Shown: positions 9,179 through 21,856, numbered from the stretch's first letter. The stretch is 37,524 bases of DNA from a virus (IMGVR_UViG_3300045106_000019:1-37524); one strand, 5' to 3'. Program-made: numbers and translations. The notes: generated by a model from the letters alone, not told the origin.

Positions 9179-10222
9179 TCAGAAGTCCACGAAGAGCTTT
9201 TTAAGCTCCTTGTCGTTGATGCTGTCCCTACATAAGTCTCTCATACGACGTCGGGTTCCGCCACCCGTGGTTTTGTAGCCCACGCAACCTCCATCCGCGT
9301 TCAGGACGATTTCCAGCTCCGTCCCATCTATAACTTTGGTCCAGAGCTTCGAGCTGTCTTGTATTTGCAAACGCCAATCCAGGCAGGGTCCATCAATGCC
9401 AGCGATAGCATTCGCCACATCAATGGCTGACCCGTATCGGTTTGCTGGGTCGACTTCGAGGCAGCGCCTTATAACGTTGCGCAGAGTGGACGGGATATGT
9501 GGCAAAAATGAAGACCTGTCCGGAAACCTCCCATTCCTGACATCGAACTGGAAAGCGGCGCGGTCAAAATCGTCCGGAGGCCCGTATTTGGCGAACTGGT
9601 CGTTGAAGTGCGCGTTGCCATTCGCCATGCGGTAGAGTGTCAAACCTACCTGATAGATATCGAACCTGCGATCAAAATGGTCTGTCCTTGTCGCTTCTGG
9701 CGGGATCATCTTGCCGTAGAGTCTGTCCTGGGCGGCGATGCCAGAGAAGTTCATCTGCTTGGCCTGGCCGAAGTCGGATACCAGCGCCTCTCCCCTTTCT
9801 GACAGAAGGATGTTGTCGGGCTTGATGTCGAAGTGGATTAGGTTCTTCGAGTGGATGTTGTGAAGCCCGGCGAGAACTTGGCAGCCCATGGCTATGATCT
9901 CACGGACGGTGAGGTGCCGCTCAGCCATCAGATTTTTGACCGATCCGTTGCTGTAGTAAGGCATGGCGACATAGACATGATCGTCATCGAAGCATGCGTA
10001 GTGCACCTGCACGACATTAGGATGCGCGCTAGCATAAAGGGCTTTGGATTCCGCAAAGAATTCGTCAGGGGAGTTAAGGCTTGCCTTGCGTAGCCGCTTG
10101 GCGACGATTTCGGCGTTCAATTGATGGTCGTGTGCGACAAAGGTATGTGAGTTCTGGCCATCGTGGCCGATCTCCCGGATAATGTCGAACGTGAGTTCCG
10201 CCTTGTGGTAGGGCTTAAGCAT
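9179..10222 (-). CDS. Hanks-type Ser/Thr protein kinase (non-RD)
   Basis: VAK, alphaC Glu, HPNVV, IHFDIKPDN, DFG, PPE, DIYQVG, conserved Arg in PANRY; start MLKPYHK overlaps the upstream stop. Confidence 0.93.
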   Translation of the reverse strand: MLKPYHKAELTFDIIREIGHDGQNSHTFVAHDHQLNAEIVAKRLRKASLNSPDEFFAESKALYASAHPNVVQVHYACFDDDHVYVAMPYYSNGSVKNLMAERHLTVREIIAMGCQVLAGLHNIHSKNLIHFDIKPDNILLSERGEALVSDFGQAKQMNFSGIAAQDRLYGKMIPPEATRTDHFDRRFDIYQVGLTLYRMANGNAHFNDQFAKYGPPDDFDRAAFQFDVRNGRFPDRSSFLPHIPSTLRNVIRRCLEVDPANRYGSAIDVANAIAGIDGPCLDWRLQIQDSSKLWTKVIDGTELEIVLNADGGCVGYKTTGGGTRRRMRDLCRDSINDKELKKLFVDF

Positions 10223-10670
10223 GCTCAGCCCCCATAGCGCAGAGGATTGCTTCCCTTGCCGCTTTTGACATTTTTTCCCAGTTCTCGACGCCGGGATATT
10301 CATCCCCGTCTACTAACGGCCTGAATTGCTTCCTGTTGATGCCAAGGCGGCCAGAGATCGAAGCTATCTGGCCCACATAGTAAGAGTGGAGCGTTGAACT
10401 GGCGAAAGCTTCTTGGATGACGCCTTCGATCTGGATGCGCTCGATGTTCGCTGACTGAGCGATTGATTCTGTCACGCGTATTCCTGCGCGCTCAATTTCG
10501 TATTCGCGCATGATATCGAGCAGGTTTGAACGGATGTATTTGAGAGCGTCCGGTGTCGCGAAGGCAGCGGGCACTTTCAGTTCTTCGACATTCAGAACGG
10601 CTTTCGCCGCGGTGTCGAAGACCGCAAAGGTGACCGTCTTTGGCGCGGCACGAATTCCGATTGTCTTCAT
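10215..10670 (-). CDS. Putative RNase H/RuvC-like fold protein lacking the first catalytic Asp
   Basis: MKTIGIRAAPKTVTFAVFD three-strand start, LLDIMREYEIERAGIR, ERIQIEGVIQ, C-terminal REAILCA helix; starts 20 nt after the cI stop. Confidence 0.6.
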   Translation of the reverse strand: MKTIGIRAAPKTVTFAVFDTAAKAVLNVEELKVPAAFATPDALKYIRSNLLDIMREYEIERAGIRVTESIAQSANIERIQIEGVIQEAFASSTLHSYYVGQIASISGRLGINRKQFRPLVDGDEYPGVENWEKMSKAAREAILCAMGAEHA

Positions 10671-10690: not shown

Positions 10691-11356
10691 CTACGCTGTT
10701 TTTAAGCCAAGTTGCCCCTGAATGCCGCCTTGCCTTTCGACCTTCCTCAATGCGGCCGGCGGCAGTACCGCGAAAATCTCGCCTATCCATTCCAGTTTCT
10801 GATCCTCGATCGGCATGGGGTCGTTCCACGACGTGAGGGTAACCGTTCCCGGCCTGCTGCCCTTTGTGATCGTTTTGATGAAGCGCCGACCTTCCGCCGT
10901 CCGAACCGCCGCCTCCATACCGTAAAAGGATTCGATCGGCTTCTTTTGCTCGCGGTAGACGACGATCACGGTCCCGGGTTTGAACACTGGCATCATGGAA
11001 ATGCCGCTAACGATGAAGGCAACCATATCGTCGGGGACGGGAAAGGGGAGTAGAACCTGGTCCAGACCTTCCGGCGGCACCTGCTCGAAATCCGGCTCCA
11101 CTTCCGCGCCGGCGCCGAGATAGCCCATGATCGGGACTTCGGCGCTGCTCGGCTCGTCGGTGGCGTCTGGATTTCGATAGAGGTCGTCCGGCTCCACGCC
11201 TAGAGCGTCTGCCAGCGGGATTTCCCGCTTCGGCATAATGCGCGTGTGGCTGTTCTCGATTCGGCTGATCGTCTGCCACTGGACGCCGATGGCATCCCCT
11301 AGATCGGCTTGGGTCCAGCCCTTCGCCTCGCGCAACTCTTTCACCCGATTTTTCAT
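10691..11356 (-). CDS. cI: CI-like repressor (XRE HTH plus S24 autopeptidase)
   Basis: LREAKGWTQADLGDAIGV HTH; GAG cleavage site; GISMMP Ser and FIK Lys; divergent from cro. Confidence 0.92.
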   Translation of the reverse strand: MKNRVKELREAKGWTQADLGDAIGVQWQTISRIENSHTRIMPKREIPLADALGVEPDDLYRNPDATDEPSSAEVPIMGYLGAGAEVEPDFEQVPPEGLDQVLLPFPVPDDMVAFIVSGISMMPVFKPGTVIVVYREQKKPIESFYGMEAAVRTAEGRRFIKTITKGSRPGTVTLTSWNDPMPIEDQKLEWIGEIFAVLPPAALRKVERQGGIQGQLGLKTA

Positions 11357-11375
11357 GCGACTACCGATAGCAAGC

Positions 11376-11441
11376 ATCGCAAAAAATGCGTATCGCAGGA
11401 AATGTGATATTTGGCGTTGACGATATCGCATAAACTGCGAT
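11376..11441. promoter_or_regulatory. OR operators (11376-11392, 11392-11408, 11425-11441)
   Basis: ATCGCAAAAAATGCGTA, ATCGCAGGAAATGTGAT, ATCGCATAAACTGCGAT. Confidence 0.85.
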
Positions 11442-11445
11442 ATAC
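11417..11445 (+). promoter_or_regulatory. pR-like promoter
   Basis: TTGACG-N17-ATATAC with a perfect operator in the spacer, upstream of cro. Confidence 0.7.
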
Positions 11446-11470
11446 AGGCTTCGACAAACGGAGCCGATGC

Positions 11471-11716
11471 ATGTCTCTCACCCTCAAAGATTGGCGCGAA
11501 GCAAAGGGCTGGAATACCCAGCGCCTTGCGGAAGAGCTTGGCCTCGATGAGAAGGCCGGCCCCGGAACCGTCTGGCGTTGGGAGACTGGCCGCAGCCGCC
11601 CGGATGCCGACGTGATCGCCAAGATCGAGGAAATCACCGCGGGCGAAGTTACCGCCAGCGAGATGCATGAGACCCGGCTGGCATTCCTCCGCTCGAAAGA
11701 GGGAGAAGCCGCATGA
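11471..11716 (+). CDS. cro: Cro-like XRE HTH regulator
   Basis: LKDWREAKGWNTQRLAEELG...TVWRWETGRSRP; GGAG SD. Confidence 0.88.
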   Translation: MSLTLKDWREAKGWNTQRLAEELGLDEKAGPGTVWRWETGRSRPDADVIAKIEEITAGEVTASEMHETRLAFLRSKEGEAA

Positions 11717-12612
11717 GCATCCAGTTCGCAACCGATCCGGCACCGGTGGTTGATCGTGTCGAGCAAACTCCTCCGGTCGGCGTTCGTTGGCACGAATATG
11801 CCGACATATTCCCTTGGATTGAGGGACCGGCGTTTGAGGAATTGAAAGCCGACATCGCCAAGAACGGTGTTCTCGAGCCGATTGTGTTCCTCGACGGAGC
11901 GATCCTCGACGGTCGCAACCGCTATATGGCGGCGAGGGCGCTCGGCATCGAATACCCCCGTGTCGAATACACCGGCGGTGATCCACTTGGTTTCGTCATC
12001 AGCCACAACCTGCAACGCCGGCACCTGACCGAAAGTCAGCGGGCGATGGTGACGGCGAAACTGGCCAAGTTGCCAAAAGGTCGCCCGGCAGAAAATACCG
12101 AAATTTCGGTATTTAAACCAACGCAAACCGAAGCGGCGAAGATGCTGAATGTCAGTGTCGACAGCGTGCAGTTTGCGAGGAAGGTTCAGGAACAAGGTAC
12201 ACCAGAACTTGCCCGCGCAGTCGAGGAAGGCAAGGTCAGTGTCTCTGCTGCTGCCTCGATTGTCGATCAGCCGCCCGAGGTTCAACGAGAAGTCGTCGCG
12301 CAGCCGAACGTCAAGAAGGCCGTTTCCGAACTTCGGAAATCGGTTCTCGAAGCGGCGAAGCAGGGCGCGGCCGGCGGCTCGGAGCAGTCGAACAAAAACC
12401 CCCACTATCAGGCTCCGACAAAAGCGGGTGAGGCGTGGACCAAGCTCTACGGCTCCTGCCGCGCGCTCGCTGAATGGGCGTCTGACGAAAACATGCTGCT
12501 GGCACTGCATGGCAAGGCGGAGCGCACCGACGATCAGACCGCAAACGTTGCCGCGATCCAGAAGGCAGCCGACGCGCTCACCAAGTTCCTCGGAGACATC
12601 AATGCTCAGTGA
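11713..12612 (+). CDS. ParB/Srx N-terminal domain protein with HTH
   Basis: LKADIAKNGVLEPI...ILDGRNRYMAA; NLQRRHLT; TQTEAAKMLNVS. Confidence 0.85.
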   Translation: MSIQFATDPAPVVDRVEQTPPVGVRWHEYADIFPWIEGPAFEELKADIAKNGVLEPIVFLDGAILDGRNRYMAARALGIEYPRVEYTGGDPLGFVISHNLQRRHLTESQRAMVTAKLAKLPKGRPAENTEISVFKPTQTEAAKMLNVSVDSVQFARKVQEQGTPELARAVEEGKVSVSAAASIVDQPPEVQREVVAQPNVKKAVSELRKSVLEAAKQGAAGGSEQSNKNPHYQAPTKAGEAWTKLYGSCRALAEWASDENMLLALHGKAERTDDQTANVAAIQKAADALTKFLGDINAQ

Positions 12613-16299: not shown

Positions 16300-17672
16300 G
16301 CATCCATCCCGATTATCGGCAGTTTTTGAGCCGAAAGGTTCATGAAGGCGCGGACACCGGTTTCGAGCCGACGTTCATGCCGTCCGATCTTTTCGACTTC
16401 CAGAAGGCAATGGTCACCTATGCAGTCGAGAAAGGCCGCGCAGCGCTTTTCGAGGATTGTGGCCTTGGCAAGACTGTCCAATTCCTGACTTGGTCGCAGA
16501 ATGTGGTGGAGCACACCAATCGGCCGGTGTTGGTGATCGCTCCGTTTGCAGTCGCTACGCAGATCGTGAGAGAGGCAGCGAAGTTCGGCATCGCGGCCGA
16601 GCGGTCTTCCGACGGCACATTCACAGGGAAGATCGTTGTCACCAACTATGAACGGTTGCCGGCCTTCAACCCTGCGGACTTCGCCGGCGTGGTGTGTGAC
16701 GAAAGCTCCATCCTGAAATCATTCGATGGCGCGCGTCGGGCAGAGATTACCGACTTCATGCGCAAGGTGCCGTATCGCCTTCTGGCGACCGCGACGGCCG
16801 CCCCGAACGACTATATCGAACTCGGCACGTCCTCCGAGGCCCTTGGATACATGGGCCACATGGACATGCTGAACCGGTTCTTCCGCAATGACCAGAACAA
16901 CAGCGCGACCCGACGCATGTACGGCGAGGCGCCCAAGTGGCGGTTTAAGGGGCATGCCGAGACGCCGTTCTGGCGGTGGGTGTGTTCGTGGGCACGGGCG
17001 ATGCGGAAGCCGTCCGATCTCGGGTTTGCTGACGGTGGTTTTGTCCTCCCGGCTTTGGTCGAAAACCAGCATCTGGTCGAGGTCGATAGCCTTCCGAACG
17101 GCATGCTGTTCAATCTGCCGGCTGCAACGCTCCCCGAACAGCGCGAAGAGAAGAAGCGGACGATCAAGGTTCGCTGCGAACGTGCGGCCGAGCTGGCCTC
17201 GCATGATCGCCCGGCCATCGTCTGGTGCCAATTCAACGAGGAAGCCGACCTTCTCGAGCAAATGATCCCCGGCGCAAAGCAAGTATCCGGGTCACAGGCC
17301 GACGATCTGAAGGAAGGTCGGTTGATGGGGTTCGTTGACGGCGACTTTCGCGTCCTTGTCACGAAGGCGCGCATCGCGGCGCTTGGCTTGAATTTCCAGC
17401 ACTGCGCGCATGTGGTCGATTTCCCGTCGCACTCCTACGAGCAGTATTACCAAGGCGTCCGCCGGTGCTGGCGCTTCGGCCAGTCGAAATCCGTCGTGGT
17501 CGATACCGTCCTGACGGAAGGCGAGCGCAAGATCATCGAGAACCGCCAGCGCAAGGCCGAAGCCGCGCGGGCGATGTTCGACAACCTGATTTCCGAAATG
17601 AACAACGCCATCGCCGTGGACACGTCGCGGGCGTTCGACAAGGCTATGGAGGTTCCGGCATGGGCGGCGTGA
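16296..17672 (+). CDS. SNF2/SF2-type helicase
   Basis: CGLGKT, DESS, TAT, GLNFQ, QGVRRCWRFGQ. Confidence 0.9.
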   Translation: MSIHPDYRQFLSRKVHEGADTGFEPTFMPSDLFDFQKAMVTYAVEKGRAALFEDCGLGKTVQFLTWSQNVVEHTNRPVLVIAPFAVATQIVREAAKFGIAAERSSDGTFTGKIVVTNYERLPAFNPADFAGVVCDESSILKSFDGARRAEITDFMRKVPYRLLATATAAPNDYIELGTSSEALGYMGHMDMLNRFFRNDQNNSATRRMYGEAPKWRFKGHAETPFWRWVCSWARAMRKPSDLGFADGGFVLPALVENQHLVEVDSLPNGMLFNLPAATLPEQREEKKRTIKVRCERAAELASHDRPAIVWCQFNEEADLLEQMIPGAKQVSGSQADDLKEGRLMGFVDGDFRVLVTKARIAALGLNFQHCAHVVDFPSHSYEQYYQGVRRCWRFGQSKSVVVDTVLTEGERKIIENRQRKAEAARAMFDNLISEMNNAIAVDTSRAFDKAMEVPAWAA

Positions 17673-18658
17673 TCGATCAGGTCATCGCGGACAATTACGC
17701 GATTTACAACGGCGATTGCGTCGACGTGATGCAGGGCCTTCCGGCGGAAACTGTGCACCTGTCGGTGTACTCGCCCCCCTTCGGCGGCCTTTACCACTAC
17801 TCCAGCGACGAGCGCGATCTGTCGAACTGCCGGGACTATGACCAGTTCTTCGAGCATTACGAATATGTCGTTCGTGAGATCGCCAGGATCACGATGAGAG
17901 GCCGGTGTTCGGCCGTGCACTGCATGGACGTTCCGACGGGAAACACGGGGTCGGATGCCTATATCGACTTCCCCGGCGACATAATCCGCCTTCACCAGCG
18001 CATGGGCTTCGATTTCATCTGCCGGCACGCGATCTGGAAAGAGCCGCTCTGGGTTCGCAACCGGACCATGCAGAAAAACCTCGCGCACAAGACGGCCGTG
18101 GACGATAGCACCAAGTGCGGAGTGGCGTCGGCCGACTATCTCCTGATTTTCCGAAAGCGCGGCGAAAACCCGATCCCTGTGTCTCATCCGACTGGCTTCC
18201 TCGAATATGCGGGCGACGACAGCAAGATGCCGGTGGACGTTCGTCGGCTTCGCGGCTTCGAAGGTGACCAGAAACGGAACAAGTTCTCGCACTGGATCTG
18301 GCGTCGCTATGCGTCCTCGATCTGGGACGACATCCGCATGGGGCACGTCTTGCCCTACGTCGAGGCGAAGGAAGAGGATGACGAAAAACACGTCCATCCG
18401 CTCCAACTCGACGTGATCGACCGTGTTGTGCAGATGCGCTGCAACCCCGGCGAGACGGTCTTCACCCCCTTCATGGGTGTTGGATCGGAAGTCTATTCCG
18501 CCGTTACTAAGGGTCGCCGCGGTATCGGCGCTGAGCTTAAGGCCAGCTATTTCAAGCAAGCAATGCGGAACTTGGCCGGTGCGAAATTCGGTGACCGCAT
18601 CGCGCCGCCTGTGCAGGAGGACATTTTCAGCGCCGCGCAGGATAGCGAGGCCGCGTGA
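17660..18658 (+). CDS. N4-C/N6-A DNA methyltransferase (beta class)
   Basis: GDC...SPPF catalytic motif before PFMGVGS...GAEL SAM-binding motif. Confidence 0.9.
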   Translation: MGGVIDQVIADNYAIYNGDCVDVMQGLPAETVHLSVYSPPFGGLYHYSSDERDLSNCRDYDQFFEHYEYVVREIARITMRGRCSAVHCMDVPTGNTGSDAYIDFPGDIIRLHQRMGFDFICRHAIWKEPLWVRNRTMQKNLAHKTAVDDSTKCGVASADYLLIFRKRGENPIPVSHPTGFLEYAGDDSKMPVDVRRLRGFEGDQKRNKFSHWIWRRYASSIWDDIRMGHVLPYVEAKEEDDEKHVHPLQLDVIDRVVQMRCNPGETVFTPFMGVGSEVYSAVTKGRRGIGAELKASYFKQAMRNLAGAKFGDRIAPPVQEDIFSAAQDSEAA

Positions 18659-19230
18659 TGCTCATCCTCGGCCTCGACGGAGCGCAGAATACCGGCTGGG
18701 CGCTGTACGATACAGCAGCCAATCTGGCGGCCATCCGCGCCGGCGTCATCAAGACAGCCGGCGACGACTACGAACACAAGGCCGCTTCCCTCGGGCTTGG
18801 GCTGGTACGTCTGATCAAAGCAGACCGCCCCGACTTCATCGTGATCGAAATGCCGATCCGGTCCCAGCCGGCCGCGCGCCAGAAGCGCACGGTCAAGTTC
18901 ATGGGCGAGGATCGCGTCGAGGAAGTGGCTAGCGGCGGGCTGAATGCCGTCATTTCTTCGAACCAAATGGTCGGTGCGTTGTCGGCAATCATCGGCGCCT
19001 TCCAGATTCCGTTTGAGACAATCGCGCCGGTGACATGGCGCAAGCAGTTTCTCGGCTTTGGAACGCGACCCGGCTGGCAGCGGAAGGATTGGAAGAAAGC
19101 CGTTCGCGATCGGTGCGCCCAGCTCAAGATCACGGTGACCAATGATGACATGGCCGACGCGGCAGGGATCGCATTCGCGGGCGCATCGCTCCAGACGTTC
19201 AAGATGATGCAGGCGCGGAGGGCGGCGTGA
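18655..19230 (+). CDS. ruvC: RuvC-like Holliday junction resolvase
   Basis: ILGLD...TGWA, IVIE, WRK, DDMADA. Confidence 0.8.
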   Translation: MMLILGLDGAQNTGWALYDTAANLAAIRAGVIKTAGDDYEHKAASLGLGLVRLIKADRPDFIVIEMPIRSQPAARQKRTVKFMGEDRVEEVASGGLNAVISSNQMVGALSAIIGAFQIPFETIAPVTWRKQFLGFGTRPGWQRKDWKKAVRDRCAQLKITVTNDDMADAAGIAFAGASLQTFKMMQARRAA

Positions 19231-20426
19231 TGGCCCGGGCCTATTACAACGAGATAGACCCTGCGGCTGCCCACATCCTTCGCGCCCTGATCGACGCTTA
19301 CGTGATCGCGCCCGGCGATGTCGACACCCGCTCAATCAAGGATGTCCAGCCAGATGACCTTTCAGGCTACACGCAATGCCATTTCTTCGCGGGAGGCGGT
19401 CTCTGGTCCGTCGCAGCTCGACTTGCTGGATGGCCTGACGACCGCCCGCTATGGACCGGATCGTGCCCCTGCCAACCGTTCTCGGCCGCCGGCAAAGGGC
19501 TCGGAACCGATGATCCAAGGCATCTGTGGCCGGACTTTCATCGCCTCATCCGTGCCAGACGGCCCGCTGTCGTCATGGGAGAGCAGGTTGCGGGAAAGGC
19601 TGGCCGCGGTTGGTTCGACGGAGTCGGCGCTGATCTGGAAGGAGACGGTTTCGCCGCAAGGACGGTCGATTTCCCGGCTTGCAGTGTCGACGCGCCACAC
19701 CAACGGAACCGCATGTACTGGATCGCTGTATCCGACGCCGACAACATCGAGGGGCGGGGACAACTCGAACAGCGCTGCGGTGAAGGACCGCGGACACGGG
19801 AACAACCTTCAGGGCGTGATGACGCATGTCCAGCGTGCGGTGGAAGCGGGCGGATGGGACCTTTCTTCCCAGGAGGGCTGTCCACCATCTGCGCCAACTG
19901 CACCCCCGTGCGCAGCGCACTGGATCACAGCGTCGGCAAGAGACTGGAAGGACACGCCGGGTATGGCGACGGAAGCTGGCGAAAGGAACCGGGTGGATCA
20001 GTTGCCGCGGCAGATGGCGCAGTCACCCCAAGCGTTTCATCCGACCCCGCTCTCACTATCATTCAAGGACAGTCATCAACCCGGCACGAACCGGACAATC
20101 GAGCAGATGCGAGCATACATGCCGACGCCGACCGTAGCGGACGTGCAGGGCGGTCGGAAAGCGAGATCGGGCGCTCGTTCGAACGAACCCCTGCTCAACG
20201 GCCTGTGCTTCGAAATGGAAGCTACTGGTCCGATGCCGACTGGATCAACTGCCACGACGGCAAAGCGCGGCGCGCCCAATCCGGTATTCGCTTTTTGGTT
20301 GATGGGCTTCCCGGACGAGTGGATCTCTGGCGCGTTGGAGGCAATGCGATCGTACCGGAAGCCGCGGCGGAAGTAATCGCCGCATTCATGGACGTTTACG
20401 GCGTTCCGAGGAGGGCAGCGGCATGA
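19230..20426 (+). CDS. C5-cytosine DNA methyltransferase, alpha chain (motifs I-VIII and X)
   Basis: FFAGGG, GSCPCQPFS, EQV, PHQRNR, GNAIVP; no motif IX in this frame. Confidence 0.88.
   Translation: MARAYYNEIDPAAAHILRALIDAYVIAPGDVDTRSIKDVQPDDLSGYTQCHFFAGGGLWSVAARLAGWPDDRPLWTGSCPCQPFSAAGKGLGTDDPRHLWPDFHRLIRARRPAVVMGEQVAGKAGRGWFDGVGADLEGDGFAARTVDFPACSVDAPHQRNRMYWIAVSDADNIEGRGQLEQRCGEGPRTREQPSGRDDACPACGGSGRMGPFFPGGLSTICANCTPVRSALDHSVGKRLEGHAGYGDGSWRKEPGGSVAAADGAVTPSVSSDPALTIIQGQSSTRHEPDNRADASIHADADRSGRAGRSESEIGRSFERTPAQRPVLRNGSYWSDADWINCHDGKARRAQSGIRFLVDGLPGRVDLWRVGGNAIVPEAAAEVIAAFMDVYGVPRRAAA
19318..20376 (+). CDS. Nested +1-frame beta chain of the C5-MTase (TRD-like PTP repeats plus motif IX); start uncertain (19318/19342)
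   Basis: 352-codon open frame wholly inside the alpha gene, ending NPVFAFWLMGFPDEW (motif IX-like). Confidence 0.72.
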   Translation: MSTPAQSRMSSQMTFQATRNAISSREAVSGPSQLDLLDGLTTARYGPDRAPANRSRPPAKGSEPMIQGICGRTFIASSVPDGPLSSWESRLRERLAAVGSTESALIWKETVSPQGRSISRLAVSTRHTNGTACTGSLYPTPTTSRGGDNSNSAAVKDRGHGNNLQGVMTHVQRAVEAGGWDLSSQEGCPPSAPTAPPCAAHWITASARDWKDTPGMATEAGERNRVDQLPRQMAQSPQAFHPTPLSLSFKDSHQPGTNRTIEQMRAYMPTPTVADVQGGRKARSGARSNEPLLNGLCFEMEATGPMPTGSTATTAKRGAPNPVFAFWLMGFPDEWISGALEAMRSYRKPRRK

Positions 20427-21856
20427 ACGCCTATTCCCGCGACATACGACCCGCGCTCCCCGATGCCGTCGAGGCCGAACAAGCCTTGCTGGGCAGCATC
20501 CTCACCAGCAACGAATCGTACTGGCGGGTAGCTGGGTTTCTGAAACCCTCCCATTTCATCGAAGGTGTGCACGGCAAGCTCTACGAGATCATGAGCATGA
20601 TGATTGCCGAGGGCAGGGCGGTGAACCCCATCACGGTCAAGCCTTACCTGCCCGAGCAGATGGTAGGTGAACTCACGCTGTTTCAGTACGTGGTGCGGCT
20701 TGCTGCGGAGGCCGTGACTGTTTCCGGCGCCTATGACTACGGCCGGGCAATCATCGAGATGTGGGCCAGATACCAGCTGATAGGTGTGGCTCAGGACCTC
20801 GACGCTCTGGCCCGCACCATGCCGGTGGACATGACGCCGGAGAAAATAATCACCGCGACCGCGGATCGGCTCACCCACATCGCTCAGGAGGGCAACGAGA
20901 GGGCTTCCTCGCTGAAGTATGGCGTTCTGCTTCCCAAGGCCATCGAGCGGGTCCAGAAGGCCAGCGAGGACGCATCGGCGCTGATTCCGTGGTTTCTGCC
21001 CGAAATCACGACTATCGCCGGCGATATCCGCCGGGGGAACTTGATTGGCTTCATGTCGGATTCGGGCGGGGGTAAGACCTCATTCAGCCTTCAACAGGTC
21101 CGCCACGCCGCCCTGGGCGGATACAAGGCAGCGTTCTTCTCGATCGAGATCACTGAGGAAGAGGCCGCACTACAGGCGGCGGCGCAGGCTTCAGGCATTT
21201 CCCTCGGACGGCTGGATGCTTTCACCCTGAACAACAAGGAGCAATCCGAGATCGAGGCAGAAATGGCCCGGTCGATGAATCTTCCATTCGATATCGTTCC
21301 GTTCTCGGACTGCACCCTTTCGGATATCCGCATTCGGGTGGAGGCGATGAAAAAGTCAACCGGGCTCGATCTCGTCGTCATCGACCATGCCAAGATGATC
21401 GCGCTGCCGGGTAAATCGGGCGACATTTTCGCAGAACGGATAAACGCCCTTTATCGTGGGTTGAAGGCCATCGCGAAGTCGCTGAACGTGGCCATGGTCA
21501 TCCTGATCCAGAGAAACGAGGAATGGAAATCGCGCGTCAAAGCGGGCGGTACGCCGCGCCCCATGATCGGAGACGCATATGGCGGCGGTTCCATCCGCCA
21601 GAATTTGGACGTCTGGTTTTCGCTCTACCGTCCCGAGCCGATTTTCCGCGAGTTGATGACCGCCGAACATAACGAGAAGAGGCGCGATGAGTGGGTGAGA
21701 AAATACGAAGAATCGAAAGGGAAGGCGGCCCTTATCAACCATAAGCGGCGTCGCGGAGAGCCGGGACAATCCAAGCTTATCAAATTCAACGCCGAGTTTA
21801 CTCGGTTCGAATCCGAACATTCGGAGATGCCACCTGCTTTCGAAGGGTTTTTCTAA
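20423..21856 (+). CDS. dnaB: DnaB-like replicative helicase
   Basis: AEQALLGSIL N-domain; SDSGGGKTS, FSIE, VVIDH, GSIRQNLD, KRRRG. Confidence 0.9.
   Translation: MNAYSRDIRPALPDAVEAEQALLGSILTSNESYWRVAGFLKPSHFIEGVHGKLYEIMSMMIAEGRAVNPITVKPYLPEQMVGELTLFQYVVRLAAEAVTVSGAYDYGRAIIEMWARYQLIGVAQDLDALARTMPVDMTPEKIITATADRLTHIAQEGNERASSLKYGVLLPKAIERVQKASEDASALIPWFLPEITTIAGDIRRGNLIGFMSDSGGGKTSFSLQQVRHAALGGYKAAFFSIEITEEEAALQAAAQASGISLGRLDAFTLNNKEQSEIEAEMARSMNLPFDIVPFSDCTLSDIRIRVEAMKKSTGLDLVVIDHAKMIALPGKSGDIFAERINALYRGLKAIAKSLNVAMVILIQRNEEWKSRVKAGGTPRPMIGDAYGGGSIRQNLDVWFSLYRPEPIFRELMTAEHNEKRRDEWVRKYEESKGKAALINHKRRRGEPGQSKLIKFNAEFTRFESEHSEMPPAFEGFF

Follow-up and report, generated by a model that had tools for sequence, protein, structure and literature searches.

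Between the genes for a RuvC-like Holliday junction resolvase and a DnaB-like replicative helicase lie two open reading frames on the same strand, one nested wholly within the other (Table 1). The stretch of DNA analysed, referred to here as the window (37,524 nucleotides), is a 37.5-kb tailed-phage record with an estimated completeness of 67%. Terminase, portal and capsid genes form its right side, and the nested pair belongs to a replication module of SNF2-like helicase, N6/N4 methyltransferase, RuvC-like resolvase, C5 methyltransferase and DnaB-like helicase genes (assignments from Pfam and PHROG). The longer frame, alpha, overlaps both neighbouring genes at its ends, with its start on the RuvC-like stop and its stop on the DnaB-like start. 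Two genes upstream, after the SNF2-like helicase gene, is a second DNA methyltransferase of the N6/N4 family (17465–18658, plus strand; Pfam E 3e-15). No restriction enzyme was found among the 24 window ORFs scanned against Pfam, out of 168 ORFs of at least 80 amino acids that are mostly shadows. The closest named relatives of the shorter frame, beta, are in Aminobacter (62% identical) and Nitratireductor (59%) genomes, which points to an alphaproteobacterial host.

Table 1. Features of the nested methyltransferase locus, in window coordinates.
Feature	Position	Strand	Description
RuvC-like Holliday junction resolvase	18658..19230	+	Upstream neighbour; Pfam/PHROG
Alpha chain, C5 cytosine methyltransferase	19230..20426	+	398 aa; Pfam DNA_methylase E 3e-13; PHROG 363 E 3e-69
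Beta ORF, +1 frame, wholly within alpha	19318..20376	+	352 codons from first ATG; PHROG 1008 E 1.5e-18
Likely beta ribosome-binding site and start codon	19338..19356	+	AAGGA, 11-nt spacer; putative
Conserved beta block, residues 82–123	19561..19686	+	Helix and hairpin; overlaps alpha motifs VI–VIII; invariant L91, G99, S100, W107
Beta cassette 1 (YPTPTT...)	19729..19824	+	Rare type; cassette profile
Four-cysteine CxxC...CxxC module, alpha frame	19827..19904	+	Inside cassette array; conserved in alpha frame
Beta cassette 2 (WITASARDWKD...)	19921..20025	+	Commonest type, 84 of 554 cassettes
Beta cassette 3 (HPTPLSLSFKDSHQPG...)	20038..20118	+	Missed by profile; blastp matches in 12 other fetched betas
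Beta cassette 4 (MPTPTVAD...)	20119..20208	+	Type with 47 of 554 cassettes
Motif IX, NPVFAFWLMGFPDEW, beta frame	20278..20322	+	Invariant P322, W327, M329, G330, P332
DnaB-like replicative helicase	20423..21856	+	Downstream neighbour; Pfam/PHROG

Alpha has M.HhaI as the best PDB match to its profile. In the usual numbering of C5-methyltransferase motifs it carries the PF00145 motifs I (FFAGGG, 19383), IV (PCQPFS, with PC; 19467), VI (19581; E, as EQV instead of ENV), VIII (HQRNR, with RxR; 19698) and X (GNAIVP, 20340) in order, without motif IX. Motif IX is found in beta, which shares 1,059 nt with alpha; 17 further beta codons follow the segment NPVFAFWLMGFPDEW, which overlaps a conserved alpha stretch just ahead of motif X. 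This segment was assigned by position, as opposed to a residue-level match with HhaI: in single-frame actinophage relatives the same segment precedes motif X, with both in one frame, and the model of such a relative fits M.HhaI over its full length. The initial annotation had described the two nested ORFs and this distribution of motifs, and both are present as it placed them. Beta matches no Pfam or NCBIfam family and, by sequence, no solved structure (best E 0.47).

An assembly slip and a chance opening were both considered as origins of the second frame and rejected. Two DNA assemblies, which may themselves be the source of the window, span the locus with no differing or missing letter. The region also occurs in six RNA runs, with contigs from two covering most of the gene; contigs cannot show transcription or frame. 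When alpha was randomly recoded by phage codon usage, the +1 frame stayed open in 1.4% of 5,000 trials, and alpha stayed open in fewer than 0.01% of 5,000 trials when beta was recoded. The longest open +1 run in ten other window genes was 51–130 codons; these results, with the counts in homologues, dispose of a chance open frame.

In hundreds of phages and prophages, selection acts on both frames and neither is closed. A search from alpha gave 85 sequences (80 IMG/VR loci, four GenBank loci and the window), from which 18 were dropped (15 duplicates, two cut by a contig end and one, L027, without motif X in the alpha frame), leaving 67 distinct loci. In all 67, no stop interrupts beta between motifs IV and IX (66 by script, L055 on reading); the third (+2) frame is open in none and each of the three reverse frames in one. 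Because these loci had been kept for an open alpha, a reverse search was made from beta: 80 GTDB loci were found through motif IX, three of them cut by an edge, and 73 of the remaining 77 keep alpha open between motifs IV and X (69 by script and four variant-motif loci on reading), with the third frame open in none of the 69 confirmed by script. The check suggested in the initial annotation, whether both frames remain open in homologues, thus comes out positive from either side.

Exceptions are few. Alpha is broken in four of the 77 beta-found loci (L159, L161, L165 and L202), and in L165 the cause is one stop, in the middle spacer, while beta is undamaged. L189, counted above among the variant-motif loci with an open IV–X stretch, carries a stop at motif I, and the dropped L027 has a one-base shift in both frames. 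In L016 (3001–4610) an insert of several hundred bases interrupts the alpha N terminus near codon 38, and the motifs resume downstream. Counted over 66 loci, which are related so that the counts are not independent, +1-frame stops number 49 against 46 expected before the beta start, none against 35 expected in alpha codons ~44–105 and none against 109 expected in alpha codons ~106–166. Phage relatives of low G+C content in Paenibacillus and Lactobacillus also keep the +1 frame open. Of 50,697 phage records 423 match alpha and 97 match beta, and 382 confirmed stretches were found across GTDB.

Standard annotation, which had been expected to miss beta, does so in part. PHROG 363 (alpha) and PHROG 1008 (beta) represent this same family and are both labelled DNA methyltransferase, the latter matching the window's beta, and three of 11 GenBank relatives annotate both frames; others call one frame or the wrong one. 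Records with both frames annotated include those of coliphage K1G (ORF30/31), Xanthomonas PhiXhv-28 and Paenibacillus BN12. In these records and in the two PHROG entries we found labels only, with no account of cassettes or of any test.

Selection acts on the same bases in both readings at two places. Divergence at four-fold sites of alpha is 0.61–0.67 elsewhere and falls to 0.38 over alpha residues 106–166, opposite the beta block, and to 0.19 over residues 333–365, opposite motif IX. On these bases alpha itself keeps residues that are invariant or near-invariant, catalytic or conserved.

Beta is open for 352 codons from its first ATG, as had been reported, but it most likely starts at the third of three candidates (19318, 19342 and 19354), giving a chain of 340 residues. 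The predicted ribosome pairing energy is −5.5 at 19354 against +0.5 and +0.4 at the two upstream ATGs, and a public gene caller gives the 340-residue product (P0099) from the same codon. Across loci, the beta ATGs cluster 38–52 codons before motif IV, and where GGAG precedes one particular site, that site is an ATG in all 20 loci, compared with 20 of the 46 loci lacking GGAG; the start-site signal is weak and its position differs between loci.

Prediction of the alpha–beta complex, which the initial annotation had put forward as a check, came out in favour of a pairing. Built from both alignments, the model scores 0.90, with 0.00 for the best of three controls; the mark set on this score is reached by 116 of 157 solved complexes and two of 215 mismatched pairs, and halves of a split gene can pass because they resemble solved single-chain enzymes. 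At least 52% of contacts are common to the runs, with a partner pLDDT of 51–52, and the interface falls exactly on the two conserved stretches of beta, the block and motif IX. Folded alone, beta is mostly of low confidence (pLDDT 55, pTM 0.24). Alpha and beta are thus predicted to bind each other, which the model supports and does not show.

Taken together, alpha and beta very probably form one DNA cytosine-C5 methyltransferase of two chains, its activity being a prediction. Alpha would be translated by coupling to the upstream RuvC-like gene, and beta would start internally, ~40 codons in, from its own ribosome-binding site. In the predicted model, the beta block (residues 82–123) clamps on alpha residues 121–167 and the motif X helix, and beta motif IX (residues 316–349) clamps on the first helix of alpha and residues 329–390; the middle of alpha would loop out as a mostly unconstrained spacer.

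Between the block and motif IX, beta consists of an array of modules, referred to here as cassettes, with a median length of 34 residues, starting with W-P-T-P-x-x-x-D (‘WPTP’) and ending in a leucine-containing turn. This array, which did not figure in the initial annotation, explains the length of beta. Four cassettes lie in the window. Cassette 1 has no close relative among the fetched proteins, the matches to cassette 3 leave out the window's own two entries, and cassette 4 is of a type that mycobacteriophage Wachhund gp69 also has, in its main frame and between motifs VIII and IX. A profile built from 83 seeds, which misses some cassettes including the window's third, finds 554 cassettes in 190 chains, with zero to seven per chain and most often three. 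They fall into 120 clusters, 34 of them with three or more members, and 169 distinct arrangements occur among 188 chains.

Judged by their substitutions, the cassettes are under selection in the beta frame. Changes within a type concentrate on beta third positions (0.35/0.26/0.51), and identity within a type is 62% in beta, 35% in alpha and 39% in the third frame. One to seven cassettes stand between the beta anchors, and their number, type and order change far more quickly than the catalytic core does: just two of 31 pairs with at least 90% alpha-core identity have the same cassette set. Among pairs with alpha-core identity below 62%, none has a cassette in common at 75% identity or above, so that recent exchange between distant lineages is not demonstrated. 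Each cassette is a whole number of codons and stop-free in both frames.

The opposite reading of the array, the middle of alpha, had been described as low in information. For the most part it is indeed unconserved, with no conserved segment that could be a target-recognition domain (TRD), but it holds the conserved four-cysteine module. In the window and in L004, L129 and L034, 21–24 of 26 residues of this module are identical in alpha against 10–19 of 26 in beta, and the differences are mostly at alpha third positions. As the module is conserved in alpha inside beta's array, selection switches frame along the overlap. It likely binds zinc, a reading taken from its CxxC pattern; the match to Pfam zinc ribbons reaches only E 0.15–0.5. 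In L034 (3859–3936) the module stands after motif X in an extended alpha tail, outside the cassette array, so that it moves as a unit.

A further insertion occurs directly after the beta stop in six of the 67 loci (L030:4232–4621, L071:3881–4354, L052, L055, L069 and L073) and in the dropped L027, as an HNH-like endonuclease ORF whose Pfam HNH match (E 1e-4 to 3e-3) does not reach the curated cut-off. In the six loci it occupies the +1 frame and alpha reads across it to motif X. Behind it is a duplicated beta tail, with three ORFs on one stretch; in L083 (Cy-LDV1) only a duplication scar is left.

In actinophage relatives (L085–L086 and L093–L125) the same parts are arranged differently. The main frame has motifs IX and X, and cassettes are found there, in the +1 frame or in both; where they share the main frame, motif VIII is followed in that frame by cassettes and then by motifs IX and X (profile match probability 96%), and one actinophage cassette type is common to the window. 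A short +1 ORF with the beta block is kept in 29 of 29 intact actinophage loci, and in L122 and L123 the block occurs a second time, ~1.3 kb upstream. A model of a single-frame actinophage protein matches M.HhaI end to end (Z 22.4, r.m.s.d. of 3.4, 249 aligned), with pLDDT below 50 in the cassette region at residues 175–185 and 198–235. In C5 methyltransferases the TRD lies between motifs VIII and IX, according to the available text of PMC3404938; the cassettes occupy that place, which supports a role in target recognition.

M.EcoHK31I of E. coli belongs to a restriction–modification system. By the available descriptions, this enzyme (target YGGCCR) has its beta chain encoded wholly within alpha in another frame, with motifs I–VIII and X on alpha and motif IX on beta (PMC2836561, PMC3404938); alpha is inactive without beta, alpha and beta from separate genes complement, and the predicted TRD is on alpha (PMC2836561). 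The parallel drawn in the initial annotation holds as far as these descriptions go: the window enzyme has the same division of motifs, with IX on beta and X on alpha, and the same nesting on one strand. The predicted TRD of M.EcoHK31I is placed on alpha, with one known target; here the middle of alpha is unconserved and the candidate modules are on beta. The window enzyme is unlike M.EcoHK31I in the 340–352 residues of beta with their cassette array and in its neighbours, which are phage replication genes.

Overlapping C5 methyltransferase ORFs are also described for Streptococcus phage MM1 (ORF13/ORF14), the S. thermophilus 5093-group phages and Tn5252, in the available text of PMC5601072. 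As in the window, the C5 methyltransferase gene of phage MM1 fully encloses a +1 ORF (PMC5601072), but ORF14 has 141 residues without cassettes or motif IX, and ORF13 has its own motifs IX and X. Direct profile comparison of beta with ORF14 gave a probability of 0.2%, and the link through intermediate betas is weak (E about 0.003, in a small database). A profile trained on distant betas finds 50 of the 67 betas, with the window's beta not reached at E 0.001. M.AquI is, by the account available, another C5 methyltransferase that is naturally made of two chains, the small one bearing part of the variable region; a single split puts both IX and X on the small chain (PMC3404938), whereas in the window motif X is back on alpha.

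The array itself is most like the tandem TRDs that, by the available accounts, make Bacillus phage enzymes multispecific (PMC8936443). Those of SPR, SPbeta, phi3T, rho11 and H2 share with the window tandem exchangeable modules of 30–45 residues between motifs VIII and IX, a conserved P-T core and an orphan status (PMC8936443, PMC2413257). They are, on the same accounts, single chains with no dual coding and a canonical TL motif, unlike the window. Several tandem modules between motifs VIII and IX, variable between relatives, occur here on beta and in actinophages in the main frame.

Given a two-chain enzyme, the cassettes are probably target-recognition modules, an assignment made by analogy. 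We say that the array works like a multispecific enzyme and do not claim membership in the Bacillus SPR/SPbeta type. The TL consensus of that type, PT(ILV)(TASV) in the available text of PMC2413257, does not describe the cassettes: in 463 of 551 the residue after T is P. The distance from the start of the last cassette to motif IX is 42–107 residues, against 10–50 for TL. The cassette profile finds no match in SPbeta MtbP, and cassettes have a pLDDT of ~50 or below in both folds (beta alone and the single-frame actinophage relative). These points and the reported TRD on alpha of M.EcoHK31I are the reasons for the narrower wording.

The same observations are what favours a two-chain enzyme in which the cassettes are not specificity modules, its specificity being single, relaxed or set by one cassette, and the rest being spares, linkers or protein-binding sites. 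The missed TL consensus, the absent MtbP match and the low model confidence over the cassettes would all fit, and inactive TRDs do occur in Bacillus phage enzymes. The predicted TRD on alpha of M.EcoHK31I, in the available text of PMC2836561, also fits. We nevertheless hold this account to be unlikely, if a serious one: there are dozens of cassette types, every one of them conserved in the beta frame and found in shuffled order, and mere linkers would call for nothing of the kind; the middle of alpha has no conserved segment able to serve as TRD, and single-frame relatives have their cassettes in the VIII–IX region.

That beta is a regulator or accessory factor, with alpha methylating alone or the pair acting on non-phage DNA or another substrate, we regard as improbable. 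Its best support is from the actinophages, whose main frame has cassettes, IX and X and yet keeps the +1 beta block in every intact locus; the block may therefore have a role beyond supplying motif IX. In the window, by contrast, alpha is without motif IX and beta has it, and both conserved parts of beta are buried on alpha in the predicted complex. The inactivity of M.EcoHK31I alpha without beta, as described in PMC2836561, argues in the same direction.

A single chain made by two programmed frameshifts, from alpha motifs I–VIII by +1 into the cassettes and motif IX and by −1 back to motif X, had been raised in the initial annotation and is very improbable. It would restore the canonical motif order, and it could accommodate the weak beta start signals and L165, in which the alpha spacer is stopped with beta intact. 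Such a chain needs neither the first 137 codons of beta nor the middle of alpha, yet both stay open; the beta block over motifs VI–VIII is constrained, and the alpha-frame module inside the array is selected. Alpha residues 333–365 are conserved on the motif IX bases, and since the same bases are selected in both frames and one chain cannot use both readings, double frameshifting is disfavoured. An untranslated +1 frame, kept open as a by-product of 63% G+C and of alpha codon use, is scarcely credible: single segments of the window gene do open by chance in 13% of recodings, but the +1 frame is open in 67 of 67 loci against none for the third frame, cassette substitutions follow the beta-frame pattern, and beta is open in the low-G+C Paenibacillus and Lactobacillus phage relatives.

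On balance we lean towards a two-chain C5 enzyme whose beta cassettes serve as target-recognition modules. Each cassette would be an alternative module, like the tandem TRDs of Bacillus phage multispecific methyltransferases, and the enzyme would methylate several sequences and so shield replicating phage DNA from host restriction. Whether it represents a widespread multispecific class we judge to be evenly balanced. Such a class would carry a combinatorial cassette array, drawn from a library of at least 34 recurring types, on a hidden +1 subunit; every cassette gained would have to make sense in both frames, and either chain could have modules of its own (zinc-like in alpha, a whole HNH gene in relatives) slotted into the same stretch.

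The nested layout is already known; the surprising part is the shuffled cassette library on the nested chain. Our literature search brought up M.EcoHK31I, M.AquI and the streptococcal overlaps but no description of cassettes arrayed on a nested chain, and as most subscription papers and REBASE notes lay outside it, absence from print is not established; the available text of PMC4982283 and PMC12707154 holds nothing on such an array. If the two-chain reading with recognition cassettes is true, many phage genes now listed as a single cytosine methyltransferase encode two-chain enzymes with a specificity that is unreadable from the annotated protein, and M.EcoHK31I is a member of a large group and no curiosity. 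The cassettes would then be a natural library of recognition modules of 30–45 residues, which could help in working out a recognition code and in building programmable methylases. The locus also offers a clean example of dual coding on one strand over more than 1 kb, with selection alternating between frames along the gene.

Across the whole window CCWGG is strongly depleted (27 occurrences against 100 expected), as are GAWTC, GASTC, CGATCG and CTCGAG. None of the depleted words (CCWGG, GANTC, CGATCG and CTCGAG) is attributable to any cassette. Depletion of GANTC is presumably linked to CcrM.

Elsewhere in the window, a 383-residue ORF on the minus strand (864–2015) has a weak MazG-like match (Pfam E 8.5e-4). 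A Ser/Thr protein kinase gene (9179–10303, minus strand; Pfam Pkinase E 4e-37, PHROG 2361) adjoins a CI-like repressor gene (10691–11986) and is reminiscent of the Stk kinase of phage 933W.
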